The notes beneath the pieces were generated by a model. That model ran no database searches, had not been told where the DNA came from, and saw only the letters and a program-made list of their open reading frames with translations. A program made the translations under genes and the position numbers. A stretch of DNA of 63,689 nt, counting the filler, from Stramenopiles sp. TOSAG23-6 (lineage: Eukaryota), in assembly GCA_900128565.1 (NCBI GenBank). It is 10 parts of 10 records of this genome, joined end to end, with 100 filler letters (N's around TTAATTAATTAA, not from the genome) between each part and the next. Parts side by side here need not be neighbours in the genome. Positions count along the whole stretch, not along the records: positions 31,958 to 38,232 come from LT636731.1; 9 more parts are not named here. One strand, written 5' to 3'. Shown here piece by piece: positions 10,585 through 54,292 of this stretch (its first letter is position 1; every line of letters begins with the position of its first letter).

Positions 10585-10853
10585 TTATTAATGCAAAGAA
10601 TGTTTCACTTTGGAATTAAAATTTTCATTTTTTTTATCATTTGCATATTATACAAATTATACATAAATTTTGTGGGCTAATGTATAACGAAGTTTGTCGG
10701 AAGAAAAAAATGGGTAAGTAGAGTCGTAGACTGGTATATACTATGAAAAATATAAAGGCGTGTTTTATTAATCTTTAACATCAAAAATACTTCAACAAAA
10801 CTTGTATATCTCTTTTCAAATCAAGTTTTTATGCAAGACACATATTCATCACA

Positions 10854-12185: not shown

Positions 12186-12997
12186 TTCTTTCTTTCTTTG
12201 TTTCTTCTCTCTAGCTTATGTAAACAGTAGACTCTACTAGAGCTAGGTAAACCCTAAAAAAACTGTACACCAAAGAAGAATCAGTTTTNNNNNNNNNNNN
12301 NNNNNNNNNNNNNNNNNNNNNNNNNNNNNNNNNNNNNNNNNNNNNNNNNNNNNNNATACGAAATTTCGTACCTAACAATACCACAAATGTCATGCAGAAA
12401 AATATTGTTCAGTTTTCGTGTTATTTTTTTCTCCGGGTAACGTACTACTTTAGAAAATTTAATAATGACATGACAGTGAGAGAGACACACACGCGTACCT
12501 CAATATACGTAGTCTCTCCATCGATAAGAAGAAATCCTCAGCAAAAATTATCTTATGACGGCTTCTTCGAATACTTCAAGCTACAATGAACGTGGCGGAT
12601 TACGTAACCGTGTGCAAACTAGCCAATACAATAGCTGTAGGTCTAGACTACGCCGTGAACGGTCGTTTCCACAACTTGTAGATCTTGCGCAAAGTCGTGG
12701 ACGNNNNNNNNNNNNNNNNNNNNNNNNNNNNNNNNNNNNNNNNNNNNTTAATTAATTAANNNNNNNNNNNNNNNNNNNNNNNNNNNNNNNNNNNNNNNNN
12801 NNNACGTTTTCATCATGAATTTCAAATTTATTTTTTTTCATACGAAATTTTGTACCTAAGAAAAAAAATATTTTTTTTTGAGTTTTTATTCATTGACGTT
12901 TTCATCATGAATTTCAAATTTTCAATTTTTTTTTAATGGGGAATTTTGTACCTAACAAATGTTTTGAATTTTTTTTAAATATTTTTTTGTAATACAT

Positions 12998-13416
12998 CTT
13001 TGTGTTGAAAAAGATTCGAAGTGGTATTTCAGATAGAAATGAAATCTGCAATTCCGTTTGGTTTTCTACAAAAGAACATATTTTAGATTATGAGTGGTGT
13101 AATATGGCAATTCATTCTATGAGTCAATCGGGTCCAGAAATTACAAATTGGACAAAACTGGGTTGTTATAAATGTATGTTTGATTTTTTTTCAAATTTGT
13201 TTTTTTTTTCGTACGAAAGTTTGCACCTAACGAGTTTTTTTTGAAATACTTTTCCAAAACACATCTGAATCCTACGGTGCCATGGAACTCATCCAGCCTT
13301 GTCCTGAGCAAGCAGTTTGTAGTGAATTAAGAGATTTAAAGGATAATCAATTCTGTTGGACACCAGTTACCGATTTTAATGATGAAAATATGACAAAAGA
13401 ACGAATTTGGAAGGCA
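12998..13416 (+). CDS. Two exons of an uncharacterised Cys/Trp-containing protein
   Basis: Exons join in frame as GCYK-SESYGAMELIQPCP across family intron 13174-13264, which ends AT. Confidence 0.5.
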
Positions 13417-13511
13417 GTATGTTTTACTTTTTTTTATATTTCGAATTTATTTTTTTTCATACGAAATTTTGTACCTAACGATTTTTTTTGAAATATTTTT
13501 TTACAATACGG

Positions 13512-14353: not shown

Positions 14354-16416
14354 TCAATCTGCATCTCTCATTCCTTCAGAATCAGAATCAGAAGGTGTTT
14401 TCTCAACGTCATTAACAACAGCTGTTTCTTCAATGACGTTACCTTTATCATCATATTCTGGACAATACATTTGATTGATTCCAAGTTCTTCATTTTCCTC
14501 TTCTGTTCTTTCGTAATCTTCATTAACAATAAATTCATCTGGAATTGGATGAGTTGGGTTATATACCCAACTACCAGCGGAAGGATCCGATAAAATGACC
14601 GTGAAATCCATTTCACCATTCACTGCCTTGTTAATTTGACTAAAAAATTCTTCAAATTTTTGACGTGATTCTACCGGAGCTGAATCGCCCATGTAAAATG
14701 AAGATACTTCCTTTATTTGATCCCGTGACTGTGTTAGTAACCCTTCTACAGTTGTGTAAATTCCGCCAAGCGTACCACGATTTAACTCCAAACCAATTTC
14801 CGGTACAGCTACGTGACAGTCACAAGATTTCAAGACATCTCGTAGTAAAATATCCTTGGCATTTTCTCTTGTCACATGGATGGTTGTTCTTTTCCCCTTT
14901 TCTTTAATAGCACCACTGGTTTTTACTTCAGCATTTTTGTATCCACAATGAGGACATACAAGACACATTAACATAATATCCTGAAAATGAGGAATGTTTG
15001 TGATGGCCATTCGGTTTTCAGCTTGTCCACTGCATATGTATTATAAAAAATTATGTCAAATTAAAACTTTGTTAGATATGTTAATTAAATTTGGTACAAT
15101 TTTAACAATTCATTTCAAATCCATGATTTATGATTGAAATCCATGATGTAATGGAAAACCTACACAGGACATTTCGTGGGAAATCGAACATCAGTGTTAT
15201 TTCGAGAATCACAATCGAAATACATTCTTTCAATATCTTCCTCGGTAACTAATTTACCAATACGTTTATTTCGCTTCTCTGATAAACGATCACATAACTC
15301 CTTTTGAGCCTTTTTTAATTCATTCTCATCATCATGTGCCGCAGCTATACAACCAGTTTTTTCATCCTGTTCTTGAGAACGAGTATATGTATTGTGAAAA
15401 AATATTTCAAAAAAAAAAAAACATAAATATGTTAGGTACAAAATTTCGTATGAAAAAAAAATTAAATTAGAAATTCATATAAACATACACGCTGTAACTA
15501 CACAATTTGGGTCAGCTTCAGGTGAATTTGGATTTTCAACAGCTGCAACTCCTGAACAATCATCTAAGATAATATCAAATGGTAAATAATCTTCATGTCC
15601 AGTTGCACTAAATGCAAGTTTAGACACCATTTCATTGATTCGATTTAATTTTTCAATTTCGTCGTCTGTTGGATTGTTACCCGTTGACTGCTTCATATTT
15701 TCTGCTGCTTCACTCAAAGCAACAGTCATACTCTGTAGAACACCTTCAAGTGTTGTTAGACGACCATCTGATTTTAAACTAGCAGGTACTTGAATACCTA
15801 TGCTAGGTATTTCAATATCTGTAAATCGTGACAACACAACTTCTCTGTTTAAGTCTGACTTGGACAAAACTGTAATCACAAGTTTTACACCTTGTTCTTT
15901 GATGTCACCAGAAGGTTTTGCTTCATTGTTGCGATGACCACAAGCCCGACACTCGAAGGAAGAAATTATAATTTGCCCAAAAAATGGATATTCCCGCACT
16001 AAAAGTTTTGTCAAACCATTTTCATGACACTTTGGGCAGACACTCTCTATTTCCATTGTATCCTCAAAACCGTCACCATTTTCCTCACCATTTTTCTCCT
16101 TGTCATTTTCTTCGTCACTACTCTCCCATGCATTTTCACAAAACTCCTCTTCTTCATCGATTTTATCATCCTCAGTTATTTTTGATTCCTGAGATTCTTC
16201 AACAGGAATATCCAAATAATAACCAAGACCTTCCTCTCCAGTTCGAAACACAAAACCAGGTCTAGAACCAATAAAGGATTCGCATGGGTCAAACAACTTA
16301 TAAAGACCTTCACCTTGGGCATGACTTTTATCACGCCATAAATATCCAGGCTTTGTTGATTTGTAATCCGGGCAAGGATAAAACACGGGTTGATCATGTC
16401 CTATTGGAGCTGCCAT
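14354..16416 (-). CDS. ZPR1: Zinc finger protein ZPR1, 3 exons
   Basis: Two ZPR1 modules (ESVCPKC...SFECRACGHRNNE; FPTKCPVC...VCPHCGYKNAEVK...GGIYTTVEGLL); introns 15387-15488 and 15036-15163, both GT...AT. Confidence 0.92.
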
Positions 16417-16605: not shown

Positions 16606-18702
16606 TCAGGTTTCGTCACAAAGAGGTGAAAATCCCAATTTTCCTGTTTTAATATCATCAATAATTTTTAAAACACCAGCAATGCTCATGAGAATAACAG
16701 CACCAATCATTACAATTACTATAGAAAAGACAATAAATGATGCATTGTTATACTTTTTGACTAAATAAATCATAATCTTCTGACCTAAAAAAGTGGCTAT
16801 TAAAGAAGATACTGAAAATGCAATAGAATGTATTTTGGAAAAATATTTCAAAAAAAATTAATTTGTTTTGTTAGGTACAAAATTTCGTACGAAAAAAAAA
16901 TCAAATTGAAAAAAAAAAAACGTACATAATCTTCGAGTAACATTCCAAGAAATATAAACTGCACTGTTGCTGAACCAGATGTTATCATCACAGTTGTTGC
17001 ACTGGTTGCTTGAGTATGTATTTTGGAAAAATATTTCAAAAAAAATTAATTTGTTTTGTTAGGTACGGAATTTCCTATAAAAAAAAAATTCGATTTTTTG
17101 TAAAAAAAAAAATAAAACATACACAATTCGGAGACATTCCTAACTCAAGTAATAAAGGTCCCATTATCATACCTCCCCCGATTCCTAAAAAACCTCCCAG
17201 TATTCCTGCTATAGCAGATAAAAATGGATATAAAAACATATTTTTACCCTTCCAATGTATTTTGGGAAAATATTAATTTTTTTGAAATATTATTGTTAGG
17301 TATGAAATTTCGTACCAAAAAAAAAAAAAAAATGAATAGAAAAAACAAACATGTATATCACCCTCAGCAAATACATATGCAACTCTCGTCTTTTCTATAT
17401 GGAGCTTCTTTAAATCAAAACCTACGACACTAGCGACTAGCAACATCGAAACTATGAGTTGTGAAAAAATATTTCAAAAAAAATGTTTTTTTTTTTAGGT
17501 ACGAAATTTCGTACGAAAAAATAAATTCGAAATTGAAAAGAATAAAAAACATACATTAAAGCTCCAGATAAAATCCAAAACTGTACACTACAATTTTCTA
17601 CTCCGATAATACTAGCTGACCCAGCTTTCCCTCCACGCAACAAAGACAAAATTACTATAATAATAAACACTATAAATACTTTGAGTAAAGGTATTTTCTG
17701 ATCTTTTTCACTGTTTCTAATTTTGTTTCTCGATACTTTTTTCTCAAAATGTTCTGGTGAATCTGATTCTATTTTGTTTGTCTTGGAAAGTTTTTTCTCA
17801 AAATGTTCAGGTGAATCTGATTCTATTTTGTTTGTCTTGGAAAGTTTACCATTTTTTTTACTTTCTAACATTACAATTGTTGGTTTTGAATCTTCAGAGC
17901 TAACGTTACAACAATTTTCAATCGGTACTTCAGTCTGATTTTTAACATTATTATAATTTACATGATTATCAACATGTAAATCTTTTTCATGCTCAGTACA
18001 AGTAGGTAAATATTTTTTTGAATTGTGCCATGTTTTTATACCTTTCAATAAAGTACGAAAAGCACCATATCCAATACATATAATTAAGCAAGTCACAATT
18101 GTCCAATCTGGCATTACTTTATTCATCATTACACCAATTACTGTACCAGCAAGCATTAAAGGTTCCAGCATCAGTACACAGTCATAATCTATCAGAGGTC
18201 GATGATGTTGTGTAGGATGGTGAGAATTATAATTTATACATAGATTCACTAAACTTCCACCAAATATCATAGCTTGTGAAATTGGTACAGCTTCCTTTGG
18301 GGAAAACCCAATCACCAGTATTAGCACTGGTACAAATATACCACCACCACCTAAGCCACCACCGGCTGCTAGTGCAGCTGCAAAAAATAGAACTACCATT
18401 CCAACTATTAAATAAGCATTTATGTTGTCAAGCAATCTTCCTCTTGTACAAAGACCTTTTCTTGTTTTGTCTGACCCTGAAACAATTGAAGAAGCTTTCG
18501 CCTCTTTGCAGACGAAACCTTTGCCACATTCGGTTGGCGACCCAACAATACAATTAGTGCACTTACTCTGAAAACAAACTTGACCCTTGTCATGTGGTTG
18601 GCACTTGTTATGAATATCGCTTGGTGAAAGACTATCATCACACTCTGCTGCAGTTCTTATTAGCAGTATAGAAGCAATGATTAGAGCTGTAGGACGATAC
18701 AT
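16606..18702 (-). CDS. TauE/SafE sulfite-exporter family membrane protein, 5 exons
   Basis: AAGGGLGGGGIFVPVL, RPLIDYDCVLMLEPLMLAGTVIGV, GGFLGIGGGMIMGPLLLELG; introns 17454-17554, 17255-17350, 17016-17122, 16828-16925, all GT...AT and all frame-restoring. Confidence 0.9.
17016..17122 (-). mobile_element. Representative introner-like element (about 50 related copies across the window)
   Basis: GTATGTTTT...T-run...GAAATTCCGTACCTAAC...GAAATATTTTTCCAAAATAC-AT; the same three blocks recur in unrelated genes, essentially always in the sense orientation of the host gene. Confidence 0.8.
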
Positions 18703-19094: not shown

Positions 19095-19243
19095 TTNNNN
19101 NNNNNNNNNNNNNNNNNNNNNNNNNNNNNNNNNNNNNNNNTTAATTAATTAANNNNNNNNNNNNNNNNNNNNNNNNNNNNNNNNNNNNNNNNNNNNAAAA
19201 AAAAAAAAAAAAAAATAGGGAAAAAATTTCCTATGAAAAAAAT

Positions 19244-19289
<46 letters not shown>

Positions 19290-21655
19290 ACAATTTTATG
19301 AAATTGGTGAAATAATGAAAATGTACAAATGTGCTTAAAAATGAATCACATAAATCTAATGTTGTAGAGGATGATGAACACAATGATGTTAATAATTCAA
19401 TGATTGTGCCAACAGTGCTACTTGGCCATTTATATGACAAGTCAATTGGATTATGAATGTGTTCCTATATTTGTAGAAAATATTTCAAAATTTAAAAAAA
19501 TATTTTGTTAGGTACAAAATTTACTACGAAAAAAAAAATGAAAAAAAAATGAAAAAAAAATTCCAAAATTTTTTTTAAACAAAAGATAAAAAAAGATAAA
19601 AAAAATATTCTTATTACAACACGTACCAACATTTTTGGTGTCATATGCCGGGGACACAAAACTGTTTTCATAATTGAATATAAAATGTTTTGAACTCTTT
19701 CATCACTTTTTTCAATTTTTTCACTTTTTTCAATTTTTTCAATTTTTTCAATTTTTTCTTGATGTTGTCGACAAAATCGAACATGAATTATTTTTTCACG
19801 CCCATTACCGGGTATCAGCTGGTCAGGCACATTTTCTATAGTAAAACCTAGTAAAGATGCAATTTCTCTACTTATAGTAGGGTCATACGGTAATGTTTCA
19901 ATAAGCATGTATTTTGGAAAAATATTTCAAAAAAAATCTAAAAAATTTCGTTAGGTACAAAATTTCGTACGAAAAAAAAAATTCGATTTTTTTGTAAAAA
20001 AAATAAAAAAATAAAAAAATAAAACATACATACTATCAAGACAATCAGCAACAGATAAAATTTGTTCGGTAAAAATAAAAGGTTGAAATTGTTTTTTTTT
20101 TTTTTTTGAAATTTTTTTTTCTTCTTCTTTTGAAATTTTCGTTTTTTTTGGACTTTCTTGATTAGGATTAGGGTTAGGGTTTTTTAATGCAGGTATGCAT
20201 TTCATTACTAAATTCCACATCCCTACATAATCAATGACATTACTTGTATCAATAGCATGATATCCATTACTTCCAGGTTGTTTTAAAGGAATTTCCATAC
20301 AATGGTAAAAAAATATTTGAAAAAAAAATTCAGAATTTTTGTTAGGTACGAAATTTTTTTACGAGATTTTTTTTACGAAAAAAAAAAAAAAAAAAAAAAT
20401 GTAGGATAAAAAAATACATGCAATTACCAAATGTAAAAAAACAGCGTATTGTATTGTTTTTGACAGATTTTTGTAGACGAATAAATAATGGTGTCCAAAC
20501 ATTTTGAAGCGTTTTCGCAAATGAAGGTGAACCCACCATATTATCGATTGCATTGCTTGTATTGGTTGTAGTAGAGTTAGGGTTAGGGTTAGGGTTAGGG
20601 TCGTCGAAAATTTCGTCACTAGTTAGTGATGCAAAAGCGCCAACAGGCCCTTGACATTCTAAATATATGGCATGCTGTTTGATCCCATCGATATCATCAT
20701 TCGATATTTCAAAATTTTCAAAATTACATGTAGAAAGTATTGTGAAAAAATATTTCAAAATTTACTATAAAAAAAAAATTTGTTAGGTATGAAATTTTTT
20801 TACGAAATTTTTTTACGAAAAAAAAAAATTTAAATTTGAAATTTAAATTTGAAATTCATATAAAACGTACAACATCAAATAGAGTTGGGTTTATATACGT
20901 CACTGTAGTGTTTGTGAGGGAAGAGTCAACGGAGGAAACCCCATGTTTAAGCCAATCTACAAGAAGATGTGATAAACGTCCATGACCTGCACTTTGGTCT
21001 GAGAGTCTTTTTGCACGTACATAAATTATGAAAAAATATTTCGAAAAAAAAAATCTAAAAAAAATTGTTAGGTACAAAATTTCGTACGAAAAAAAAAATC
21101 AAAAAAAAAAAATTCAAAATTGAAATGAAAACGAACTTGTAATAATTTTTTTGTGTTTGTTTGTACAGATTTCAAAGATAAAATCGTACGCCATGCAATC
21201 CAATGTTGTTTCATAGCACTTAATGTCTTTTTATCTGTTCGAATCCATGAAGGGATTTGTTCAATTAATTGACACAAGGTTTTAAAAAGTTGAGAAAAAG
21301 TTTCTTCATTGAGCAAGACATCACTCCAAATAGCTGTTGCATATTGTATACTCAACTCTCCTTCAGATGCCAAGGTGATCAGTACCACATTTCGTGCAAG
21401 GGCAATCGAATTTAAGTCATTGAAATGTAGTTCAACTCGTGCTTCTGATGGAATATTTATCAAAGTGGTGAGAGGGTTTCGTATATCACCAACTCCAATC
21501 CAAAGCAATTTGATGGGTGTTGCGTTACATAAACTTTGTACTTCTTCTTTTGTTAGCAAGCTGCGAGCAAATGTATTTCCAATAAGAAAGCCACTCATCA
21601 CACTATCGACAAGCTTACGTCGTGCAAGACTAAATGGTTTAGAGTACACCATCAC
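19290..21655 (-). CDS. DUF4470-domain protein, at least 6 exons, 3' end truncated
   Basis: LLWIGVGDIRNPLTTL...LHFNDLNSIALARNVVLI DUF4470 signature; family introns end AT, TT (20735-20870), AT, AT, AG. Confidence 0.7.
20577..20600 (+). repeat. Interstitial telomere-type (TTAGGG)4 inside an exon; one of about 12 such tracts
   Basis: TTAGGGTTAGGGTTAGGGTTAGGG, read as DPNPNPNPN on the minus-strand gene. Confidence 0.85.
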
Positions 21656-21921
21656 TCGAAATAGCGTACTGTGGCAAGTACTCTAAAAGTAGTACTTAGT
21701 AGTAGTACTTTAAAAGTAGTAGTAAACGTCGTAGTAAACGCCAAGAAGACTTCAGAAGTTCAGAACTTTTTGGAGAACACCACGATAGTACCTGGTAACC
21801 TTGAATCTTAACTTCGCTGACTCTAAATTTTAGACACGTGTTCGTTGTGTTGTTGTTCTTTGCACGACTTGTTGTTGTTCGTCTTGTGATTGATTTTTCA
21901 TACTAATCAAAACAATACAAT

Positions 21922-22642
21922 ATGGTACGTGACACTTCAACACATGTGGGAGGTTGTCATCCATGATATTTGGATGACAACCTCCCACGTAGTTATATTT
22001 CGCTTTTATTTACTATCCCTATCCCACTTCGCCTTTCGTTAGTGTTACACGAACCCTAGTGTTACACTAACGTCATGGTTGAGACCGTTGTGCGATTGAA
22101 CTTCCTTCGGGAAGCTTTCCTCATCGAGTATATGTGGCTAAATCATTTATTCACCATCACAAACCCTTTATATATACCCAAATATACATGCTTTAATTGT
22201 AAAGGAAGGCGAGTTTCAGCACATTCTCCGTGTTATGAACACTAATCTTAACGGTAAGGAGAAAATCATGTATGCTCTGACAGCTATCAAAGGCATTGGT
22301 CGTCGTTTTTCCAACTTAATTCTTAAAAAAGCTGAGATTGACCTCAACAAACGTGCTGGTATGATGTCTCAAGAAGAGATCGAAAAAATCGTAGCTATTA
22401 TTGAAGATCCTCTTCGTTTTAAGATCCCAAAATGGTTCTTGAACAAACAGAAGGATCCTGTTACTGGTAAATGGACTCAACTACATGCTCAAGGTGTTGC
22501 TGGTGGTCTTCGTGAAGACATTGAACGTCTCAAGAAGATCCGCTCTCACCGTGGTCTCCGTCATTACTGGGGACTTACTGTTCGTGGTCAACATACAAAG
22601 ACAACTGGGCGTAAGGGCAAATCTGTAGGAAAGAAAAACTAA
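21922..22642 (+). CDS. RPS18: 40S ribosomal protein S18 (uS13); ATG-only first exon, intron 21925-22189
   Basis: [33 protein letters not shown]...[31 protein letters not shown] at 21922-21930. Confidence 0.95.
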
Positions 22643-22925
22643 AGTAGCCTAACCCTAACCCTAACCCTAATGTCGAAATTAGTGAATTTGAAACATGTCA
22701 GGACTCGATTTTTTAATATTTTTGAGTTAATTATATAGCGTGAATTCAGTTCTATATCTTAGTTTGTTGATTGTCATAATCAAGTTAGAATTCTTAGAAT
22801 TGTATTTAAAATATTGAATAAAAACCAGTATGAAAAAATATTTTGTAACCTTAACCCTAAGTACTATCGAATTGAAAAAAAAACACTTAAAATTGAATAT
22901 ACAATTTTATCTACTTAATTTTTTT

Positions 22926-25382
22926 TTACTCTTCAAAAGTTGTACATTGACTAAATTGACTGATAAAAGAAATATGACTTAAATCACTCAAATGATCATT
23001 ATGCAGTTGCTCATTTCTATCAATAAAACATGAAGTAATAAAATCTCTAATAATTTTGATACTCTTTAAAAGTTCAAATAATTCAGTGATTTCATTAGGG
23101 TTAGGGTTATTAGGGTTAGGGCTATTATTTCCATTATTTTCAATGCATTTTGAAGAATTCGTATTTAATTTCGTACCAATTTGTTGAAGAATTTCACCCC
23201 ATAATTGTAGAACATACGAAATCTCAACTGAATGATCAAAAATTTCATCATTTGTTGTTGTACACGAATTATTTTGTGTTTTTTGTGTTTTTTTTGTTTT
23301 TTTTGTTTTTTGTGTATTTCGTGTTTTTTGTGTCTTTTGTTGTTTTTTGAATTGATTCAATGCAGAGTTTGATGTTTTTTTAGAATCATTGGAATTATAC
23401 TTCTTTTTATTAGGAGTTTTTATACGAATAGGAAGAGATTTTATATCCAAATTATTCTTTTGAAATATTGTACCATTAGGGTTAGGGTTAGGGTGTAATG
23501 AGTGATTTTCATTTTTTTCTAATGTTTGCCATTCCTTCTTAAAAACATCAGGATCTTGTTTTTGAAGTGAAATAATATCATCCTCAACTTGTCTATATTC
23601 TTTAATCAATCCATTGGATATTGAATTCCAATGAGATTGCATTTGACTCATTTGAAGTGAACGATGACGAAATAATCTACTTTCATGTATTTGGGAAAAA
23701 TATTTCAAAAAAAATTTTGAAAATTTGTTAGGTACAAAATTACGTACGAAAAAAAAATTCGATTTTTTTGTTAAAAAAAAAAATAAAACATACAGCAAGA
23801 ATTTGTGAAATGATAATATTTCGTGCAACTTGCAAAGAATATTGACTTGACTCAGTTCCATCTTTACTTTTCATACTAGTGTTTTGATATGATATTGAAT
23901 TGTTAGGGTTGGGGTTAGGGCTATAATTTTTTTTTTTTCCATCATTTTTTGTATCATTTTTTAAATCATTTTTTGTATTATTTTTTGTATCATTTTTCAA
24001 ATCATTTTTTAAATCATTTTTTAAATCTTTTGTTAATTCAGAAAATGAAAACTTGACATGAGGGAAACGACCTATATTTTGGAAAAATATTTCAAAAAAA
24101 AATCTAAAAAAAATTGTTAGGTACAAAATTGAAAAATATTTCAAAAAAAAATCTAAAAAAAATTGTTAGGTACAAAATTTACTATAAAAACCAAAAACCA
24201 AAAACCAAAAAAAAAAAAATCGAATTTGAAAAAAAATTGAAAAAAAATAAAACAAACTTGTGAATTTTTTTTCCAAGACTATAGAGGACAAATAAGAAAA
24301 AAGCATATACATTTTTTTTTCAATATCTATTTTTTGTTTTAATCCATTTTTCAAGAATACCAAATGCTTTGGGAGTATACCATCAGCTACTAATGTTTTT
24401 AAAGATTTTTGAGCGACGCGGTTGAAACTGCTAATTTGGAATTTATCTGTACATGTATTGTGAAAAATATTTTTTTTTTAATAAAATTTGTTAGGTACGA
24501 AATTTCGTACGAAAAAAAAAATAAATTCGAAATTGAAAAAAAATTGAAAATAAACGTACATGATCTTTCATCAATATTATTCTCCTCCAAAATATTATCC
24601 ATCCAATGTGCAAGTTTAGTTAATTTTGCCTCTTTTAATTTTTGACTTTGGTCTCGTTTTTTCATTTCTAATTTTTTTCGGATTCTGGGGAGTGAGACTT
24701 TCCTATATACAATGAGAAATTTTTCTGTCAGACTGTTTTCATTTTCTAGAGATATTTCGTGTTGTTGTTCGAATACTTCATTTTGTTTTTGATGACTATT
24801 TTGTGTACTACGTCTGGTGTTCAATTCTGATTTAACCAGACTATACGGTTTGAAAATTTTTCGAATTTTTTTTTGGTATTTTTTTTTGTTAGGTACAAAA
24901 TTTCGTATGAAAAAAAAAATTTCAAAAAATTTCAAAAAATTTCAAAAAAAAAAAAACGTACATTTCAATTGTATCATAAAATTCATTCCAACGACAAAAC
25001 CCTTCATTAAATGAATCACAAATTTTGACTAATTCTTTTTTTTGTGAATTTGGTAATTGAATATTAATCATTCTACAAATTTTATCAATGGCAACACGAA
25101 ATACTTTATTTGTCATACACTTTTTTGGAATTGATTTTGCTAAATCCATGTATTTTGGAAAAATATTTCAAAAATTTTCTAAAAAAAAAAATTTGTTAGG
25201 TACAAAATTTCGTACGAAAAAAAAAATTCATACAAAAAAATATCAAGAATTCGTGATAGATTATTTTTACATTGAAACTCAACAACAAGACCAGTGACAA
25301 ATATCCGTAAGGCTGTATCAAGAGGTAATTCATCACTAAGACTTCCTTGCATTGATTCACATGTGGATAGGATTGTACTAAC
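22926..25382 (-). CDS. Uncharacterised low-complexity multi-exon protein, 5' end truncated
   Basis: Exons join in frame across family introns with acceptors near 25148, 24841, 24453, 24082 and 23685. Confidence 0.5.
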
Positions 25383-25588
25383 ATGTAATTTTAGGAAAAT
25401 ATTTAAAAAAATAAAAAAAAAATGTTAGGTACAAAATTTACTATGAAAAAAAAAAGATTTTTTTTTTTTTTTTTTTTTTTTNNNNNNNNNNNNNNNNNNN
25501 NNNNNNNNNNNNNNNNNNNNNNNNNTTAATTAATTAANNNNNNNNNNNNNNNNNNNNNNNNNNNNNNNNNNNNNNNNNNNNGACTACA

Positions 25589-28823
<3,235 letters not shown>

Positions 28824-30036: not shown

Positions 30037-30336
30037 TGTATATACTTGTTTTTTTGTACGGAATTTCGTACGTAACGATGTTTTTGACTCAAAACAAAAA
30101 CTTACGGTAAAGTGTATGTCATTTTCAAGAATAAATTAACTAAAATGAAAACCACAAAAGTTTAATTGAAAATATTTTTGTTCCACATAAATTTATAAAT
30201 TAATACTTTTCAAGAATTGAAATGACTGAAATGAGTTAATTTTGAACTTTTTTATATCCTACCAGTTGTCGCCTACTGTACATAAAAAAAGTATGAAAAT
30301 CTCAAATTTATTATTTAATATTACATATCATCGAGT

Positions 30337-32012: not shown

Positions 32013-34727
32013 TTGGCCAGAAAGAAAATTTGTGTAATGATAAAACAAATGCGGAAGCGTCAGGAAATTCTGGAACAATAGTGACTACTGTACGTCGTGG
32101 AAGTGGAACCTTTGGTGATGATAATAGTAGTGATGATTCACAAAATAGCGATGACTATTCTTTGCAGTTGAAGCGTGGTACATCTGCTGGTTTTGGTAAA
32201 GGTGTCCGTTTTGAAGAAAATGAAGAATGTGATACAATGGCGAATACAGTTCAAGAGAATCATGTGAAACCAAGAAATAATAATTGGCATTTTAGAGGTT
32301 TTGGTAGAGATGACCAATCTAGTGTGTCCGATTTTAGAAACGGGAGCAGTGGAGGAGGATCTCATAGCGATGTAGGCGGTGCACGCAGTCGCTTTGGTGC
32401 AAACAGTACTGAGAGTGGATACGAATGTGTCGATGTACGTTTTCATAGATGAATTTCAAATTTTGTTTTTTTGGTAGAAAATTTTATACCTAACAATTTT
32501 TTTTTTTTTTTTTGAAATATTTTTCCACAATATATGATCAGAGTGAATCAATGAGTGATGATTCAGGCAATGGTGAACCTCAAGTAGTGTCTGTTTTTGT
32601 ACCTGAAGATTGGCTTGAAGGACAACATATCCTAGTGACCATGACGGATGGTCATAGATATACTCTCGCTGTTCCTCCAGGAATGTACGTTTTACTTTTT
32701 TTTTAATTCCAATTTTTTTTTTTTAGTTTTCGTACGAAATTTTGTACCTAACAATTTTTAGTTTTTTTTTTCAAATATTTTTCCAAAACACATTGGTCCA
32801 GGAGAATCATTTCAAACAGAACTTCATAGTCACATGCCTGAACCTGAGGTTGTTTCTGTTCCTGTACCTTTAGACTGGCAAAAAGGGCAACATATACTAA
32901 TTAGCATGACTGATGGTCGGAGATATACCCTTGCCGTACCCCCTGGCATGTACGTTTTCATTATGAATTTCAAATTTATTTTTTTTTTAATACGAAATTT
33001 TGTACCTAACATTTTTTTTTTTTTTTTGAGTTTTTATTTCGATACGTTTTCATTATGAATTTCAAATGTATATTTTTTTTCCATAAAAAAATTTCACATC
33101 TAACCAATTTAAAAAAAAACAATTTTTTTCACAAAACATTGGTCCTGGTGAAGTATTTCAAGCTCATTTACGGCCAAATAAAAATGGTGAATATGAAGAA
33201 GATAATAGAAGTAGTCAGGAAAATAACGAGGAAGGTACAGATAATCCTAACCCTAACCCTAAAGATACGAATGAAAATCGTGCAGATAAATCTATTCAAG
33301 ATATTGATGATATTGAAATAGACGGTAAACGAGATGATAGCCATATTGATGATAAAGATAATCATTTGGGGGAGGTAAAACAACAAGGAAATTCGGAAGT
33401 GCTTTCAAAGACACCATCCTGTACATTTTCATTTTGATTTCCAAATTGTTTTTACTAAGAAAATGGAAAATTTTGTACCTAACAAATTTTTTAAATCAAA
33501 AAATATATATAAATCCATTCCAGCATCCATTGCTGTAGTGTTGCTCATTTGGAAACCATTGTTTGTCGTTTTGTTTCCGGGTTATGTTTACACTGGTGAC
33601 CTCACAAAGGTGTTTCTCTTCCAAGGTTGTATTGGAGGCTCCACACAGACAGTGTTCGTTTTTTGCCTGCTGGAAGTGTTAATCTCTTGTGTTTTGCTCA
33701 AAGACATTGTTGTTCCTTCTGTATTTGGTGCTTTGTGGGGGAAATTTACTCATCTAAAACGAAGAAAATTAGTAGGCTTCTGTGTGAAAATTATTGTCAG
33801 AGCTTCATGTTTCGTGCAAATCGCATTTTTAGTAGCTCCTCAAGTCGACTTGGAACGTGGATTATTCGGTAAATTTAATATAAAAAAATCCAACATGGTC
33901 CTTTTAAACAAACACACTGCAATGACATGTGAAGAAGCTGGCATGTCACTCACAGATGCAGTTGCTATGCGGGCTTGGATTTTTGCCCGTGACAATATTA
34001 TGGCCGTCATGATTTGGGAATTGGCGAGTATTCCAGAACTACCTCTAGATGCTTGGTTACATCATTTATTTGTCATTCTAGGAGTTTGTTTGGGCACAGA
34101 TCCTCAAGTTATGGCTTCACAAGAAAAGGTACAACCATTTATTGATAATGTTTCATTTTTCTTAATTTTAGGTGGTTCAGGTTCGTTTTCATCATGAATT
34201 TTTTTACCTATTTTTTTTTTCATACGAAATTTTGTACCTAACGATATTTTTTTTTTTTAATTTTTCACAATACAGTTGCCGGATTAGTAGAAAGTTGTGT
34301 TTTAGGCTACCATTTAAATAGTAGCAAACCTGATCGCCAGGCTATTTGGATTCAAAGAAGTATTGCCATTCAATCAATTATGGTGTCTATTTTATTTGTT
34401 ATCCTCCCTTCTTTTGTAATCATGAAAAGTTGGCAACATTTTGGGGCACTTGCATGTACGTTTTATTTTTTTCAATTTCGAATTTATTTTTTTTTCGTAC
34501 GAAATTTCGTACCTAACAAATTGTACAAATTTTTTTTTTTTCACAATACATACGGTTACATGGCCTTAATTCTTATTTTAGTGGCTGTAGAAATTAGAAT
34601 GATTATAGTGAAATTTTCAATTGTGAAACATGCAAAAAAAAAAGCTGCAAATTTACTTCAAAGTGATTCAGAGACGAATCAGACAGATATGAGTGAAATG
34701 TCAAATGTACAAAAGAAATTTGAATGA
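32013..34727 (+). CDS. Multi-exon membrane protein with two VSVxVPxDWxxGQHILxxMTDGxRYTLAVPPGIGPGExFQ repeats; 5' end truncated
   Basis: Frame restored across six family introns (five end AT; 34181-34275 ends AG); several hydrophobic segments and an LHHL motif. Confidence 0.6.
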
Positions 34728-39123: not shown

Positions 39124-41154
39124 ATGAATCAAGAACAACAAAATAACAGTGGTAAGAATGATTCGGAAATACAAGTGAAGCAAAAAAAGGTTAAAGAACT
39201 AAAGAAATTGTATCTGCAATGGGTTGACACCATGTCTTTGACTTTGTTTTTCATTGCCATATTCTTCATATGCGGGAATATAATGTCCCATCATAATCCT
39301 GACGGTCTTCCGGGCACTGGTGACGAATACCTTGGGAATATTGAATTGTTAAACAAAACAACAAATAATGCCATTCCAGAGTTAAATCAGAGAGGCCATG
39401 ATTGCCTTTCCGTTTCACCTTTTCTTGGTAAACAAAATGGAACACTCGAAGGGGAGTGGGTATGGGTTGATGGGCTTGCGACTACGACAAGACTACTTGC
39501 TGGTGATACCCAACCCACTAAAGTAAATGTAACCGGTAAAATTGCAGTTGCAAATTTTGGGGCTTCTCTTGATCATAAACCTGAATTTGTGTGTTTTCAT
39601 CATGATTTTTTTAACTAAATAATTGTTTGTACCAAAATTCGTACCTAACGAATTTCGAATTCTAAAATTTGTTTTTCACAATACATGGTGGAGGATTTTT
39701 TTACTCACACCAAGAAATGATTCAACACTTACATTCCGAAGGGGCTATCGGCGGCTTAATCTTGGCAAATGATTTTACAATTGAGGGCATAGGCCAGGGC
39801 CAGGGTTTTCATACTCCATATGAGTATCTTGAAGTTGATCAACCTGATATCTTTTTGGTTTGGATTACGGACTTTTACTTATTTCCAGGTGCACCTACCC
39901 ACAATGCGCCAATTCCAAAATACTTCTATGAAGAATTAGCCAAAAAGAGAGACAAACTTTTTGTTGGTGAGAGTAAGATAAGAATAAGTATCTTTGAAGA
40001 AGATCAGAAAACAGGAATTGTCGCCAAAAATCCATTTTTATGGTGCCAAGCCCACATTCTTTTGCCTTTGATGGGCATGTGTGTAATGAAAGTAGGTTTT
40101 AATACATTGGACGAAATGAACTTAAAATCGAATGCGATAAATGCTCCACGGGTCTCAATTTGGCTTGCAATTTTCACCTGTGTACTTCATGTCATCAAAT
40201 CGCCGATGCTTGGGGTGGGACTTTCGCACAGACACCTAGGAATTTGGGGTAGCGCTTATGGTTTTGGTTATAATTTCTTTAGTCCTTCCGGTGTAGCATT
40301 TTTCAATAATATCTTGGTCGGAATTTCTGTAATGGAACTAGTCAATGCTACTAAGAGAATGAGAAAACAAGCTCAAATTTTTAAAAAGTACAGAACTACT
40401 CTAATAATATCATTTATATTGACAGTCCCTCCTCCTTTTGTCATAACTTTCATTATGATACTTGGATTAATACCAATATATTATTTCGTAGTCTTTAGAC
40501 TCTTTGAAGATACATTTGGAGGTTTTTTATCAGGTGTATATTTTGTTGTTCAATTTATGCGACTTCTTCAAGTTATGGGTGAAAAACAGAGGAAAATGAA
40601 ATTAATGAGACGATCTCGAAATAAAAACAAAAAGAATGATAAACATTCTGCACAAATGCTAAAGCTTCAGCATATGACGTATTGGCTTGGCATCAATGCA
40701 TTTTTTCTACTTATTGCAACTATATTTAATTTAGGTACCTTCCTTCTATTTACTGGTGATGGATATACTATGGAAACGTTCTCGCATGTTTTTTGGTATA
40801 TAAGATATGTATTTCGAAAATCTATCGATGTAATCCTTGCATACTCAAAGATTAGATTGTTTGATCAAAGTGGTTTTCATCGGCGTAAGACTATGTACGT
40901 TTTCATCATTCATTCCAAAATTTTACTTAAATTTATTTTTTTTCGTACCAAAAGTTTTTGTACCTAACGATTTTTTTAAACCAAAAAAAAAAAAAAATTC
41001 ACAATAAATGGATAAAGTTGCCCAAACAATTTCAGGGAAAAGTCGACAGATGTCTCGTATGCTCAGACTGTCACAACGTAAAACTGATGAACAAATAGTT
41101 AAAGAAACTAAATTATTGCTTCAGAAATCTCAAGCAAGTGAAGAAAAGGCATAG
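39124..41154 (+). CDS. Multi-pass membrane protein with a PA-like ectodomain, 3 exons
   Basis: NVTGKIAVA...EGAIGGLILA PA-like motif and about 7 hydrophobic helices; introns 39589-39686 and 40895-41009 end AT and restore frame. Confidence 0.6.
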
Positions 41155-41361
41155 CTGTCTTGCTGTATATCAATCGATATTCCCTACTACCGTTAGGTTT
41201 AGTTACAAAACTTTCGTACGGAATCCAATAACAATTTATTTATTTTGAAAAAGAATAAAAAACCTGTTGACATCATAAATGTAACCGTAACGTCTTCTTT
41301 TGATGTTGACTTTTTTGCCTTACGATTTTTATATAAGATTTACAAAATTGACCCGTCAATT

Positions 41362-42780: not shown

Positions 42781-44481
42781 TCATGATTTCCTTTTATTCA
42801 CAGAGAAATTCTCCATCACAAATTCATTATTGTCGTTCCCAGTGCCTTTAGGCTGTGCCTTAAGAGCTCTATTTAACATTTTTCGTACAGCATTTACATA
42901 AAGACACCAAGCTTGGCGTGCATCTGAGTTTGTTTCTATTGTATCTAGAGAGCTGTTTTGTACAAGTGCATCAAACAATATTCCAACTTCGTCAATATCT
43001 ACAACATAATCAACGCGATTAAGTCGATCTCGATTAGTCAATGACACCCAATTATCTTTTGAGAGAATCGGATCCATGTATTTTAGAAAAATATTTCACA
43101 CAACAAAAAAAATCGTTAGGTACAAAATTTCGTACGAAAAAAAAATCGAATTTGAAAAAAAAAGTAAAACATACATCAATGACGTCACAAGTTCTTCAAT
43201 AAAATTTCTAGTGTCCTCTTTTAATGCAATAGACATACGTATTAATCCTCGAATAATTAGCGGAAGTTTTTTATATATTTTGGGAAAATATTAAAAAAAA
43301 AAAAATGTTAAATATTTAATTTTTTTTTTTGAATTTGTACAAACTTCAATGTTGAAAACCTACACCTAACCGACCCCCAAAATTCTTTCTATCTGATTTA
43401 TCATCAGCGAATTCATTTTGTGTGTCTGAATTAGAATTCGAAGACTCAACATTTCCATTCATTGTTTTACTACCGTGTATTGAATTACCAGTAAGATTTC
43501 TTGTAGCATCCATATTTAAGTTATTGTCATTTTTAAGGGTATCACTTGACAAATTCGAACTTGTAATAGTTGTGTTTAAATTATTTGAAGCGTTATTTGA
43601 ATACTCATTTTTCGAAACTATTACGCCTGGCTTTTGTATCAGTGTATCATATATTCTAGTTGTTTCTCTCGTATAAGCAGCAATACTGACTCGATTGGCA
43701 CTCATCGCTGCACGAAATTGCCCCAGAGGAATAAGAAGAGAATTACGGATAGCAAATGAAAATTCGCCCTCGTGTATTGTGAAAAAATATTTTTTTTTGT
43801 AAAATTCGTTAGGTACAAAATTTCGTACGAAAAAAAAATTTCGAAATTGAAAAAAAATAAAACATACGTCTCCACGAATTATATTATTGTTTTCGTATCG
43901 ACTTTCATGTACAGCTGCTGTGTTTTGGACATGCCCACCTCGATTTCGACGAAGAATTTCAAAACCTCCACGAGCTCCAGCTTTTCCATTATTAGAAAAG
44001 TAAGAAATCATGTATTGTGAAAAAATTTAAAAAAAAATAAATTGTTAGGTACGAAATTTCGTACGAAAAAAATAAATTCGAAATTCGTTATGAAAACAAA
44101 CATGACATCAGCAAAATACTTAAAGTCCTTCCACTTAAACGCTTCAAATCGACGACGTGTCGTAAGCCGAGTGACTCGTATGGATGGTTTCAATCTAAAC
44201 TGATGGTGTAAAAGGAAGCAAGCACATGTATTGTGAAAAAATAAAGTTGAAATTCGAAATGGGTCGAAATATTTGTTAGGTACAAAATTTCGTATGAAAA
44301 AAACATAAATTTGAAATTCATAATGAAACGTACAAGTATACGTATGAGCTAAATCATGGGGAAGGCAGAATGTAACTCCAATAAAAGAGCAAACATCATC
44401 TGCATCTTGAAAAAATGGGTAATCAATGCAAGCGTCAGCAACACGCTGTATGTAATGTAAACACATATTCTTGTGGTACAA
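42781..44481 (-). CDS. Uncharacterised multi-exon protein, 5' end truncated
   Basis: Six exons join in frame across family introns (four end AT; 43772-43867 ends AC). Confidence 0.55.
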
Positions 44482-44758: not shown

Positions 44759-45317
44759 AATTCCTCGTGATGACAATCTAAAAGGTCGAATGATTCGCGT
44801 AAATATTACAAATTCTGCTAAATGGCATGTTCTTGCAGAAGTTGTCTCTGTCGAAGGCATTGAAGGTCCTTATAAGAAGAAAGATTTTGTCGCGAAATCT
44901 GCGACTTCTCATAAAAAAAAGAACCTTCAAACTTTTGATATTGACCATAAGAAAAAAACCCTTCAAACTGTTAATAACCCTAACCCTAATGGTGAGTCTG
45001 GTTGTTGTGGTGGTAACTCTTGTAATCCGTCAAAACATGACAAGAAATTTAATAATCAAAATGCTAATACTGCTAATAATTGTGAAGAACGTACTAACGT
45101 TCATAATCAAGTTAGTGATAATAAGAAATCTGGTGAAAATAAATGTTGTGGTGGCGGAAGTTGTGGAGATAACCCTAACCCTAATGGAAAAAAAAAACTT
45201 AAAAATAATCGCGATAATGAAAATTTGTGCAGTGATCAGTCTACTATAAATTCAATAGATAAAAATGAGACCAAACAGAATCAAAGTATTTGGGAGAAAC
45301 TCATATCGTGGACATGA
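44759..45317 (+). CDS. Last exon of a CDKAL1/MtaB-like methylthiotransferase (TRAM domain plus Cys-rich tail)
   Basis: IPRDDNLKGRMIRVNITNSAKWHVLAEVV resembles the C-terminal TRAM domain of CDKAL1; preceded by the 3' end of a family intron. Confidence 0.55.
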
Positions 45318-49881: not shown

Positions 49882-50317
49882 AAAGGGAAAGAGTTAAAAA
49901 TTGAAAATAGTATATATTTTTTAAATGTAGACTAGCTTAGAAGAGAAATAAAAACTCAAAAAACAAAATGTTTTTTTTTCTTAGGTACAACATTTCGTAT
50001 GAAAACCAAAAAACCAAAAAGAAGAGAAACTACAGTCCTTTTTGTATAGTAAATTTGTATAAAAATATTTTTTTCTAATTGATTTTTGTATGGTACATTT
50101 GTATAGAAATATATTTTCTACGGTATACCTTGAAATAGTCTTGTATCAGGCAAAAACAAAATATAAGACTCTTCATAAATAAGAAATCAAAAGAGGCAAA
50201 GATTTTTTTTTAAATAGTTTTTCTATTTGTTTTATTGTTGAATAATAATATTTTCATTCTTTTTGACATTGGTCGTAGCGGAGCAAATAAAAAAAATGAC
50301 ACCATCGGACGATAATT

Positions 50318-51071: not shown

Positions 51072-54000
51072 TGGGCACGGTCTACATCAACTCGTTTTAA
51101 AGGCGAAAGAGGGTCCTCTCGTATTAATGGTTCTTACAGTATTAAACAATCCCAGTCTAAACGTCGAGAAGACTCCCGGGTAATTGGTAGCTCATCTTTC
51201 CCAGCCTCAAGTACAAGAAGTACACCACCTGAAAAAGTATACTCAGAGAGTCACTCACAAGGTAAAAAAAATGGGAAATTAAAATTGAATAGTAAAAAAT
51301 ATACTGATAATCGTAAAAGTGCTGCTGTCGAAAGTAGAATTCACCAAAAAGGACACGTCGATAATAACATACAAACTTATCATTCTTCACAAGGTTATTC
51401 ATCCGCTGCAAGAGCATGTATGTCAAATCATCGACCAGTATACCCCCCGCTTCCAGAAACTCCAGCAACCCCAAATTCGCCAAAAACACCTCATATTCCA
51501 CACAGTTGTCGCGACGACTTGGTCACTAAACTTTGTTTTGATGATGGCAACGACGGAGAAAAATATCCTAAAGATAATTCAACATCCGACACTGCTCCAA
51601 CACTTCGACGAACGGATTCTATACCACAAGGTGGGAATGATGATGGTCAAACTGTATATAGTGTTTCAAGCGTTGCTGATGATGCACCTCAAGGTCTCAC
51701 AACCCCTCTGGCAAAGGGAAATGGATATGACGCAAGAGAAGAATTGTTCCGGTCTTCCATCAAAAAAGCAATCAAAGCACAAACTGTTTTGAAACAACGA
51801 CTTTGTACGTTAGAAGAGCAGCGAAAATCTGATATTCGAAGAGGTGAAGATAAAGTAAACGAAATCACAGAAAAACTTCGTCTTGCTTTAAATAACTGTG
51901 AAAATGCTGAGACTGGTTGGACTTTGGAGTTATCACAAAAGACTGCAGCTCTTGAGAAAGCCAACCAATTAAAAAAATAAAGCTTGCTGATATGGAATTT
52001 AGCGCAAAGTCTGAAAAATATAATGAACTCCGTAAAGTTTCGGCGAAGCAAAGAAAAGAGCTTATACGCATTGACGACGAAAATTTTAATTTATTTCAGA
52101 AAGTAAAATCTCTCGCAGGAAAACTTCGGGCAAGTCAAAAAGCTGCTGAAAAGTCCTGTATTGACGCAAATGAAAGCGCACTTGCCGCCGAAGAAGCAGC
52201 TATTAGTGCTCAAGCAATGGCCGATGCATTAGATATTGAGCGATTTCGTGTTTTACAACTTGAGGAAAATACACAAGTTTTGCTTCAAAGACTTCATCAA
52301 GCTGAAATGGAAGCCGAGACGTATAGTCAGTGTACTGCTTCAACTACAGAATTGAAGGAAAAACTTGATAATGTGAATGAAACTGCTCGGAATGCAATAC
52401 TGCAGTTAGAATTAGAAAAAGGTTCACGAAATGAAGAAATTAATAGACTGAAAAGTAGCCACGCTTACGCACTGCAAATGTGCCATGATATTGCGGAAGC
52501 AGAAATGATTAAAAGTGCTGCCGACGCGGAGCGTAACCAAAACCATGCAATTGAGAAACTGTGTTCAGAGTATGAATTTAAAATACAAGCTTTACTTTTA
52601 CAGGCTGATAATGATTGTATATCGGCTGTGGAAGCTTCAATTGGTGCATCAGAGGCTGAAAATGGGAAATTAAAAAAAGAAAACACGGTATTAAAAGCAT
52701 TGAATAAAAAATGTGAAAGTGAAATCAAAGAATTAATACACATCAAGAAAAAAACAAACGCGGATGTGAATTTATTAGATGCAAAATCGGCCAATATACG
52801 ACATCGTTTACAGCACGAAACTGTTCTAGCAGAAGTTAAGCAATTCGGGAGATTTAGAGCGATGAATAAGAGCAAAACTACAAAAGTGGTTTCTCAGATG
52901 ACAACAGAAATGAATAGAAGAATGGATAGGGTAATTGAAGACTGTGTAAAAGAAACTAGAATTAAAGAGGAGAAAAAATTTACAAATGTTAAAGAGAAAC
53001 TTTTCGCAAAATATCAAAATGAAATTGAACAGTATAAAAAAAGCGCTCAACTTGAAATATCGCGTTTAACATTGATGCTAGAGAATCAATCGAAATCGAT
53101 CGAAATATCGGAGGCAGAACAAATGCTACAAAGAGAAGAGCACGAAATGCAACTTCTTGCAATGGATGACTATCATACGCATGAAATGAATCAAAGAATT
53201 ATCGATACTGAAAAACACACCCGGTGTACAATTGCTAGTGAATTTTCTGCACTAAATCAAAGTGAAATACTTAATCTTCGTTCTCAGATCAAGCAATGTA
53301 CAGCTTCATTGGAATCTTTGGAAGCGAGCAACAAAAACATGAAACATGAATTAAATGCTGCAAAAATAAAAGTTCGTGACATGACAAAAGAAAACTTGGA
53401 GAATATTAAAAATCTCAAACAATTTCACGCTCATGAAATAGAAGCTCTACACGATGATCTCGTAACAAATGGTAACTTGAAGAATGCTCACGAATTACAG
53501 GGAAGGGTATCTCCGCTGAAAACATTGTCTGAAGAATCTCAGCGTCGATCATCTGTTTCAGGTTTTTCAGAAACAAATCGCCGATCATCTGTTTCAGGTT
53601 TTGCGAGAACCACAAAAGCATCGGCAGCTAAAGCATCAGCATTTAATGCACATGCAAAGAAACGTAAATTTAATTCTTCAGCTAAGCGCGTCGTCAAGGA
53701 TGATTTAAAGCTAACAAAAGGAAAAGAAAAACACGAAAGTGTATCCAATGACCGTCTGGCGACCGCGCAGATTAAAGCACAGTTACGAAATGAGGTGAGA
53801 CGAAGAAAAACTGCCGAAGCTAAAAGTGCAGAGCTCAAACGGCAGTTAGAAGAAGCTACCCAAAAGAAAAAACATGAATCAAGTAACAGTCATAAAACAT
53901 TCCAAAGTCAGCGACAAAATATTCAAAGAAATACAAGATTGAAACTTTCAAGAAAAGAATGTGAGCTAAAGAAATCTCTAGGAAGACGTAAAGAATTGGA

Positions 54001-54292
54001 AGCACGAGTAAACCGTATGAATTCAACTAGCTGTGGTAGAGTAATTCATAATGAAGGAGGTATTCCAAAAAAAACAAAGACAACTAAAAGTCGAATTATA
54101 CCAAAATCTTCTACAATAAAATCGAAAAGAATTTTCAGCAGCGGAATCCCTACAAGTAGAAAAGTTCTTAGTTCTGTTCCTATACAGAAAGAGAAGAATT
54201 TTTCGAGAAGTAATCCCCGAAATGCAAGTGCTTTAGGAATATCTCGTCGAATGACATTGCAGAAAAAGAAAAGGGCCAACAAGGAAAATTAA
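51072..54292 (+). CDS. Large coiled-coil protein with one frame break at about 51975; 5' end truncated
   Basis: One frame is open 51072-51980, and coding continues in another frame from 51980 to 54292. Confidence 0.55.

Follow-up and report, generated by a model that had tools for sequence, protein, structure and literature searches.

Introns that end without AG raise the question of what marks their 3' end, and the question is posed by the DNA analysed here, 63,689 nucleotides from the uncultured marine stramenopile Stramenopiles sp. TOSAG23-6 (GenBank assembly GCA_900128565.1; hereafter the window), in which introns of many genes carry the same 25-nt palindromic box, TTTCGTACGAAATTTCGTACCTAAC, upstream of a 3' end that is mostly AT. 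A preliminary description of the box had suggested that it might be an extended branch signal, a hairpin or ruler that positions the 3' splice site in place of AG, or the binding site of a dimeric transposase. Our results make it probable that the box is the conserved middle of an introner-like repeat family to which it supplies the branch site, that its palindromes are inherited from the element, and that a 2-nt repeat stands at the border between exon and intron.

The window consists of parts of about 6.3 kb (6293, 6285, ... 6259 bp, in falling order) joined by N-TTAATTAATTAA-N linkers (for example at 12704-12803, 19097-19196 and 25482-25581), and its G+C content is 32%. With up to three mismatches allowed, the box matches 43 times on the two strands, against 0.00 expected from 100 shuffles, and with up to four substitutions 50 times. 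Its last eight bases, TACCTAAC, occur 58 times compared to 6 occurrences of TACTAAC. With a profile of the entire element, for which 25 full copies were used, 69 matches were obtained, and since a few of these are partial, doubled or spurious, the copy density is about 1 per kilobase (approximately 60 family copies in 62 kb). The copies sit within introns of genes from unrelated Pfam families, among them the actin family, ZPR1, aminotransferases, TauE and Arf, and nearly all recognisable introns of the window are members of this repeat family. When the window was searched for introns of other kinds, none that was clearly a canonical GT-AG intron came to light outside the family, and the breaks in open reading frames (ORFs) without a family match were mostly antisense noise, N gaps or homopolymer frameshifts.

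That the copies are introns is indicated first by the reading frame. When the intron is taken from the G of GTAYGT through the T of ...ACAT, removal restores the frame in 33 of 37 copies with well-defined ends, where one in three is expected by chance, and in 24 of the 26 copies with confident flanking frames, the two misses being mis-set 5' ends. Three junctions are also backed by homology. The first of these junctions is that of the 96-nt intron at 34456-34551 (+; GTACGT...CACAATACAT), to which the preliminary description referred with a span, 34489-34551, that runs from the T-run preceding the box through the last base of the intron. Its removal restores the frame; in a tblastn search with the relatives P0138 and P0140 (82% and 74% identity), a gap of exactly 32 amino acids lies over the intron, and the spliced translation aligns without gaps with four of five relatives, reading ...HFGALA|YGYMALILILVAVE across the junction versus ...HFGGLAWGYIALIAILVAVE, so that the proteins of the relatives, P0138-P0141 among them, are colinear with the spliced form of this gene. 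The second intron (25962-26055, -; GTATGG...ACAT) interrupts an ethanolamine-phosphate phospho-lyase-like gene, the upstream exon of which aligns to human 6tor_A up to residue 318, while 6tor_A residue 322 is matched by the third residue of the downstream exon, leaving exactly one split codon between them and no gap. The third is a decayed copy in a ZPR1 gene (15036-15163, -; GTAGGT...ATAATACAT), where splicing gives CPVC, corresponding to CPKC of the first ZPR1 domain (zinc knuckle), and where the first residue of the exon that follows enters Pfam PF03367 at profile position 12.

A neighbouring family intron in the same gene as the 34456-34551 copy (34181-34275, +), with a near-identical box at 34218-34242, ends in ACAG after an exon ending in AG. 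It restores the frame between confident flanks, and P0137 and the relatives agree on ..ILGGS|VAGLVE.. at its junction. P0137 is a public coding sequence with a EukProt GSMAST32 label and is 100% identical to this gene at 33463-34526 (+). Its start (MENFVPNK...) falls within a family intron, and it splices only the AG-ending intron 34181-34275 while reading through the AT-ending intron 34456-34551, so that the box appears in the protein as FVRNFVPNK.

The absence of AG, which had been noted before, was confirmed by the terminal dinucleotides of the 32 frame-restoring copies with well-defined ends, on which all counts out of 32 given here are based and in which the introns are 89-179 nt long (median, 101). 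They end in AT in 28 copies, AG in 2, AC in 1 and TT in 1, so the AG expected of U2-type introns is found in only 2 of 32; A occupies position -2 in 31 copies and C position -3 in 28. The site that is used is not simply the first candidate downstream of the branch motif, as between one and seven AT dinucleotides are skipped in every copy, and 10 of the 32 also bypass an AG that lies 4-18 nt downstream of the putative branch A. Three of the skipped AGs would keep the frame, and the AG at 26005 is excluded by the homology to 6tor_A. The cut falls 2 nt beyond a conserved ...AATAC.

These two terminal nucleotides tend to repeat the end of the upstream exon. In 22 of 32 copies the dinucleotide that closes the upstream exon is identical to the one that closes the intron (16.8 on average in permutations; p about 0.00015), exon position -1 alone matches the intron end in 29 of 32, and the rare ends match their exons as well (AG/AG, AC/AC and TT/TT). 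Because of this repeat the cut can be written as GT...AT or, in most copies, as AT...AC, with an identical mRNA; an exon-terminal AT precedes 19 of 33 copies, including the intron at 34456-34551, the cut of which is therefore equally writable as AT...AC. We favour a 5' cut before GT since GTAYGT, being complementary to U1 and U6 small nuclear RNA (snRNA), is their natural partner. The ten copies in which the exon and intron pairs differ could in principle separate the two registers; among them are the introns at 15387-15488 (-), 17016-17122 (-), 21021-21136 (-), 23685-23793 (-), 27662-27761 (-), 39589-39686 (+), 44226-44333 (-) and 59983-60081 (-) and the copy with its box at 58942-58966 (+). 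Of these mismatch cases, the introns near 15438, 44282 and 33476 give the same protein either way, and the gene downstream of the intron at 39589-39686 had no match among the representative proteins.

The element, typically about 90-125 nt long, has a constant order of parts: it opens with (AT)GTAYGTTTT and continues with a stretch that differs from one subfamily to another, a T-run and the box, after which come a variable A/T stretch and YCAMAATACAT. In the 34456-34551 intron these are the 5' splice site GTACGTTTT (34456-34464, +; family consensus, GTAYGTTTT), the box without a mismatch (34493-34517, +), which ends in the putative branch site TACCTAAC (34510-34517, +) with a presumed branch A at 34516, 35 nt before the last intron base, and a 3' module (34530-34551, +) made up of a T-run (34530-34541) and CACAATACAT (34542-34551). 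Across the aligned copies, the 5' site has GT in 100%, G at +5 in 98% and TTT in 98-100%, and the commonest hexamers among 33 copies are GTATGT (13) and GTACGT (12). The A/T stretch between box and end holds GAAATATTTTT in about two thirds of the copies. A second self-complementary block before the acceptor, AAATATTT, had also been described; it is present in 20 of 32 copies and is absent from the intron at 34456-34551.

Conservation, expressed as the mean majority fraction per part in 35 full-length copies, is 0.91 for the 5' site, 0.64 for the interior to the left of the box, 0.88 for the left 9-mer of the box, 0.91 for its middle 8-mer, 0.98 for TACCTAAC, 0.70 for the interior to the right and 0.88 for the last 15 nt (profile columns 88-102). 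The box is thus better conserved than its A/T surroundings, as had been stated. Within it, the six CpG columns reach 0.76 versus 0.97 for the other 19 columns, and the changes are mainly from CG to CA or TG, a pattern also seen in the GTACGT/GTATGT alternation of the 5' site (variable CpG columns are 44-45, 48-49 and 56-57 in the box and column 9 in the 5' site). Methylation of cytosines in gene bodies, or the history of the subfamilies, could account for such CpG-focused variation. Since the copies differ mainly at CpG sites, the gain of these introns was recent and massive.

It is the right end of the box that has the properties of a branch site. CTAAC is the core of the U2-type branch consensus, the yeast form of which, UACUAAC, is read by U2 snRNA and BBP/SF1, and TACCTAAC is a motif of this type (YTRAY/CTAAC) placed upstream of T-runs. 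None of the 68 aligned copies departs from the T, A and A of CTAAC, and the final C is the only variable position in the 8-mer. The contrast that had been drawn with yeast TACTAAC was overstated, since the core is identical and, as in yeast, invariant and found 30-50 nt before the 3' junction; the differences that stand are the two preceding bases, AC and not UA, and a 3' site that is not the first YAG downstream. From the branch motif to the 3' junction there are 32-48 nt (median, 40.5; standard deviation [SD], 4.4), and from the end of the box to the 3' end 31-47 nt, which agrees with the 25-50 nt reported earlier and gives the distribution of distances in numbers. The distance is not constant, with a spread of 16 nt, and the box is therefore no ruler, although 32-48 nt is still a normal branch distance. 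In the decayed copy at 15036-15163 (-), the box has been lost and a new TATCTAAC is found further downstream, at a similar distance from the 3' end. From these features we infer splicing by the major (U2-type) spliceosome.

The box as a whole is not under the same constraint. Its left 9-mer carries at least three mismatches in 9 of the 32 copies that restore the frame, whereas none of the 32 has more than two in the middle 8-mer. Because loss of the left arm is tolerated and the middle is kept, constraint in established introns falls on about 16 nt, AAATTTYGTACCTAAC, and is strongest on CTAAC. The idea of an extended branch signal therefore survives in part, as the right end appears to act as a branch signal and the left palindromic arm can be lost. 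The full 25 nt are nevertheless common to all subfamilies, including those that differ elsewhere, which suggests that they were inherited from the source element and perhaps that they help it to spread.

Taken together, each copy would bring its own 5' splice site, GTAYGTTTT, and the last eight bases of the box, UACCUAAC in the RNA (core CUAAC), would be the branch site used by a U2-type spliceosome. Next would come a U-rich tract and the conserved end ...YCAMAAUAC, and the exons would be joined 2 nt beyond that end, at a pair that would be AT in most cases and AG, AC or TT where the upstream exon ends alike. These two border nucleotides resemble a 2-bp target-site duplication and may have originated at insertion. 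The left two thirds of the box, and hence both palindromes, would be inherited element sequence, unneeded once the copy has become an intron, and the palindromes do look dispensable at that stage.

The sequencing runs in which parts of the sequence recur are seawater metatranscriptomes. RNA was examined in four such runs (contigs only), which were aligned to 19197-25481 with 63-1568 contigs per run. In all four, where the contigs are short, the word depth reached thousands over the repeat compared to about 0-15 over exons, with high-depth family copies at 19827-20036, 20877-21086, 24027-24236 and 25077-25286. The repeat or close relatives of it are very abundant in those seawater RNA libraries. 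The listed joints link one repeat copy to another, and a single contig (X4 record 25; 19785-19933) runs unspliced across a 3' junction; neither splicing nor the branch is supported or contradicted by the RNA contigs. In metagenome contigs, a 20-mer from the box found one locus, contig L001, with one complete family intron that has the same ends.

Several observations weigh against the view of the box as the branch-site-bearing middle of an introner-like element. The 10 mismatches in the 2-nt repeat lie almost all at exon position -2, a bias that a simple target-duplication model does not predict, and the intron at 13417-13509 (+) in an actin-family gene stops directly at ...AC: by frame it is a GT-AC intron of 93 nt that ends in ...ACAATAC, its upstream exon being in phase 0 and its downstream codons running from 13510. 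The placement of the branch in TACCTAAC is made by analogy with UACUAAC, and among the joints listed for the four RNA contig runs there is no clean exon-exon joint. Outside the CpG sites, the left and middle parts of the box are also 93-100% conserved, and this could reflect a function in DNA for mobility or a binding site for a splicing factor. Since the family is young, part of the conservation is mere recency, and the profile-based alignment is biased toward conserved columns.

The possibility that the palindrome acts in DNA, as a site for a dimeric transposase or another mobility protein that is kept through master copies and that the branch site merely adjoins, is the strongest of the alternatives. 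Both of the overlapping palindromes reported earlier, TTTCGTACGAAA and GTACGAAATTTCGTAC, are present, and TTTCGTACGAAA is a perfect 12-bp palindrome that leaves no space for an RNA loop. The whole box is common to all subfamilies even though it decays in single copies, the 2-nt repeat is like a target-site duplication, the element has short inverted termini (ATGTAY/RTACAT), and solo box-like copies at 30052, 41192 and 49980 do not belong to introns, the one at 49980 being flanked by a 10-bp direct repeat. However, none of the 26 ORFs scanned in the window encodes a transposase and no autonomous partner was seen in it, and the binding sites of cut-and-paste elements are usually terminal and not central. 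Nor is the element a foldback, as aligning it with its own reverse complement did no better than shuffles in four of five copies. The inverted termini are only about 6 nt long and lack covariation. We consider a DNA site unlikely as the explanation of the box in its own right, and it is compatible with a box that is now an intron's branch-bearing middle rather than exclusive of it.

A role of the palindrome in RNA, as a hairpin (GUACGA/UCGUAC) or as a fixed-distance ruler that places the 3' site when AG is absent, has the attraction that some definer other than AG is needed, because AT is skipped in every copy and AG in 10 of 32. The isolated box of 34493-34517 also folds well (-6.5 kcal/mol; z, -3.05). 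In the setting of whole introns, however, folding is no better than in shuffles (z, -0.4 to -1.7), and RNAalifold predicted no consensus pairs. The covariation analysis that had been proposed for the copies was carried out and revealed no compensatory change in any of 10 specified pairs (six of the hairpin and four terminal), which were paired in 84.0% versus 83.9% in shuffles; pairing between the ends of the element amounts to 3-6 bp, again without covariation. A G-to-A change at box position 5, the variant seen most often, disrupts a pair in 6 of 25 copies, and TATAGTAAA variants abolish three stem pairs and still restore the frame. A hairpin would moreover sequester the UAC of the branch site, and the 32-48 nt between branch and junction and the separate 15-nt module at the 3' end argue against positioning by distance. 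Both proposals, hairpin and ruler, are thus very unlikely.

It is still less probable that the box has no function and that its apparent conservation comes from young copies set off against fast-changing A/T run lengths. The interior does vary largely in homopolymer length and between subfamilies, and the T-run directly before the box is itself conserved at 0.93. Against this, conservation is graded across the box, from 0.88 through 0.91 to 0.98 with a peak on CTAAC, free decay at the CpG sites shows that there has been time for mutation, and the box is common to subfamilies that differ elsewhere, while the decayed copy has gained a new CTAAC.

We regard it as extremely unlikely that the family consists of AT-AC introns removed by the minor (U12-type) spliceosome, with the box as a U12-type branch site. 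The similarities are the possible AT...AC ends in the 19 of 33 copies whose exon ends in AT, a rigid branch motif, and ACCTAAC, one base short of CCTTAAC. The 5' end, (AT)GTAYGTTTT, is unlike the U12 consensus of the RTATCCTT type, the 32-48 nt from branch to 3' end are about three times the roughly 10-20 nt of U12 introns, the ends are variable, with 10 of 32 copies not writable as AT-AC, and of the U12 motif TCCTTAAC the window holds TTCCTTAAC once and CCTTAAC three times. That RNA splicing is not involved, the elements being removed from DNA or being artefacts of single-cell amplification or assembly, is scarcely credible despite the lack of a spliced junction in the RNA contigs and a chimera-like inverted duplication in the assembly, as GTAYGT, CTAAC and the U-tract stand in the sense orientation of the host gene in the layout of a spliceosomal intron, the separate metagenome contig L001 holds a copy with the same ends, and element sequence is plentiful in RNA libraries.

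The branch-bearing introner favoured here resembles known intron-generating elements in many respects. Introners are non-autonomous transposable elements that generate introns in Micromonas, Aureococcus, dinoflagellates, Chrysochromulina and others (Gozashti et al. 2022, PMC9860276; 2025, PMC12130899), and according to the available parts of the first report, those of Chrysochromulina bring the 5' site and co-opt a 3' site, while some families take the 3' site from the target duplication (PMC9860276). As in those systems, so far as the accessible text describes them, we find many near-identical short copies in unrelated genes, with ends that are the intron ends, and copies that come with part of their splice signals and may take the rest from a short target duplication. 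The differences are a 3' AT instead of AG, a repeat of 2 nt, inverted termini of about 6 nt, and no autonomous element or empty site seen in our material. The portion of the literature that could be searched, which did not extend to two supplementary files of PMC12130899, contained no introner report for this marine stramenopile lineage, and no paper on GT-AT introners was found, a search for the TACCTAAC motif giving primers only. In the supplement of the 2022 survey, as far as it was accessible, the list of all genomes is the one place where single-cell assemblies of stramenopiles are named (PMC9860276), and in the accessible text of the genome papers on marine stramenopiles (MAST), introns are mentioned only in the methods.

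The closest parallel for the 3' ends is in larvacean tunicates, where AT is the commonest 3' end and is found in 44% of introns in Fritillaria pellucida and 34% in F. borealis (PMC13326754; bioRxiv 10.1101/2025.08.15.670264). In the literature that could be consulted, in part as excerpts, 3' AT introns are described only for these tunicates, and nothing comparable was found for stramenopiles. The sections available to us report a U-rich tract before the 3' AT, an origin from introner transposons and U2-type removal, all of which are reminiscent of the introns described here, and a mechanism involving duplicated U2AF and m6A on snRNA (PMC13326754; bioRxiv 10.1101/2025.08.15.670264). In contrast to the strong GTAYGT seen here, 5' ends in Fritillaria are mostly non-GT (AG/AC, AG/AT), a strict yeast-like branch box is not reported in those sections, and the host is an animal and not a protist. 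The nonconventional introns of euglenids and hemistasiid diplonemids and the introners of Amoebophrya share non-GT/AG ends, border repeats and inverted ends that can pair (PMC12621601, PMC7789003, PMC6221363). From the available portions of these papers, they have no U1-type 5' site or clear branch motif and pair extensively at their ends, whereas the stramenopile family has a strong 5' site and a strong branch motif, and its end pairing is limited to 3-6 bp without covariation.

The exact excision without AG means that canonical-looking 5' and branch sites coexist with AT, AC, TT or AG 3' ends set by the insertion site. A wider proposition, on which we are evenly divided, is that the spliceosome of this uncultured marine stramenopile routinely uses a non-AG site (A-N, mostly AU) that is set by the 3' module of the element, 2 nt past ...AAUAC, and skips AU and UAG upstream, and that a rigid UACCUAAC introner at about 1 copy/kb has gone unrecognised there, as a protist parallel to Fritillaria. 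If true, this would be a natural system in which a transposon, not AG, specifies the 3' splice site. It is likely that gene sets of the lineage that assume GT-AG introns suffer widespread truncation, and the box is a ready 25-nt probe with which these introns can be counted and dated in ocean metagenomes.

Some further observations concern the copies themselves. Several parts of the window start or stop within a family copy, and many table-11 ORFs terminate in peptides encoded by the box, such as SYEILYLT, in three frames of the box. Double boxes or tandem repeats of the 5' half are seen in some introns (1725-1852, 2676-2861, 12804-12998, 24070-24190 and 32945-33142), which suggests nested insertion or internal duplication. 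At 49970-50075 (-), a box unit without a 5' splice site lies on the opposite strand just beyond the stop of a Rab gene, with TTTCTCTTCT on both flanks; these flanks may be the 10-bp target duplication of a related element, and the ...GAGTTTTTATT end of the unit is also found at 12836 and 32986. Diverged box-like palindromic sequences without the family 5' or 3' ends occur between genes at 30052-30076 (+) and 41168-41200 (-). When viral contigs were searched with a 16-mer, the 35 loci found proved to be chance matches, all within unrelated coding sequence and none matching the family profile. Rfam gave no match at the gathering score over the whole window and none at E values up to 1 for 34150-34600.

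Other features concern the assembly and its genes. The part at 6405-12703 is an inverted duplication, in which one protein is encoded twice, by the ORFs at 7274-8311 (+) and 10854-12185 (-), and sequence blocks of 348 and 243 bp are repeated in mirror order, and it looks like an amplification or assembly chimera. The ORFs at 51285-51980 and 51992-54292 are apparently a single gene split at an A-run, AAAAAAATAAAG (51960-51995), probably through a homopolymer error. A WD-repeat protein of the window had no relative above 38% identity in our searches. A Rab4-like protein is 76% identical to a EukProt-labelled record, GSMAST32..., a label that we read, from its prefix, as that of a MAST-3-type marine stramenopile. 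Telomere-like hexamer runs (AACCCT/CCCTAA) are present at 22640-22680, 23100-23130, 44790-45317 and 58490-58510 and at about 1250-1310 of L001; within ORFs they encode NPNPN, they also occur within one family intron, and the end of the box, CCTAAC, equals one unit of this hexamer.

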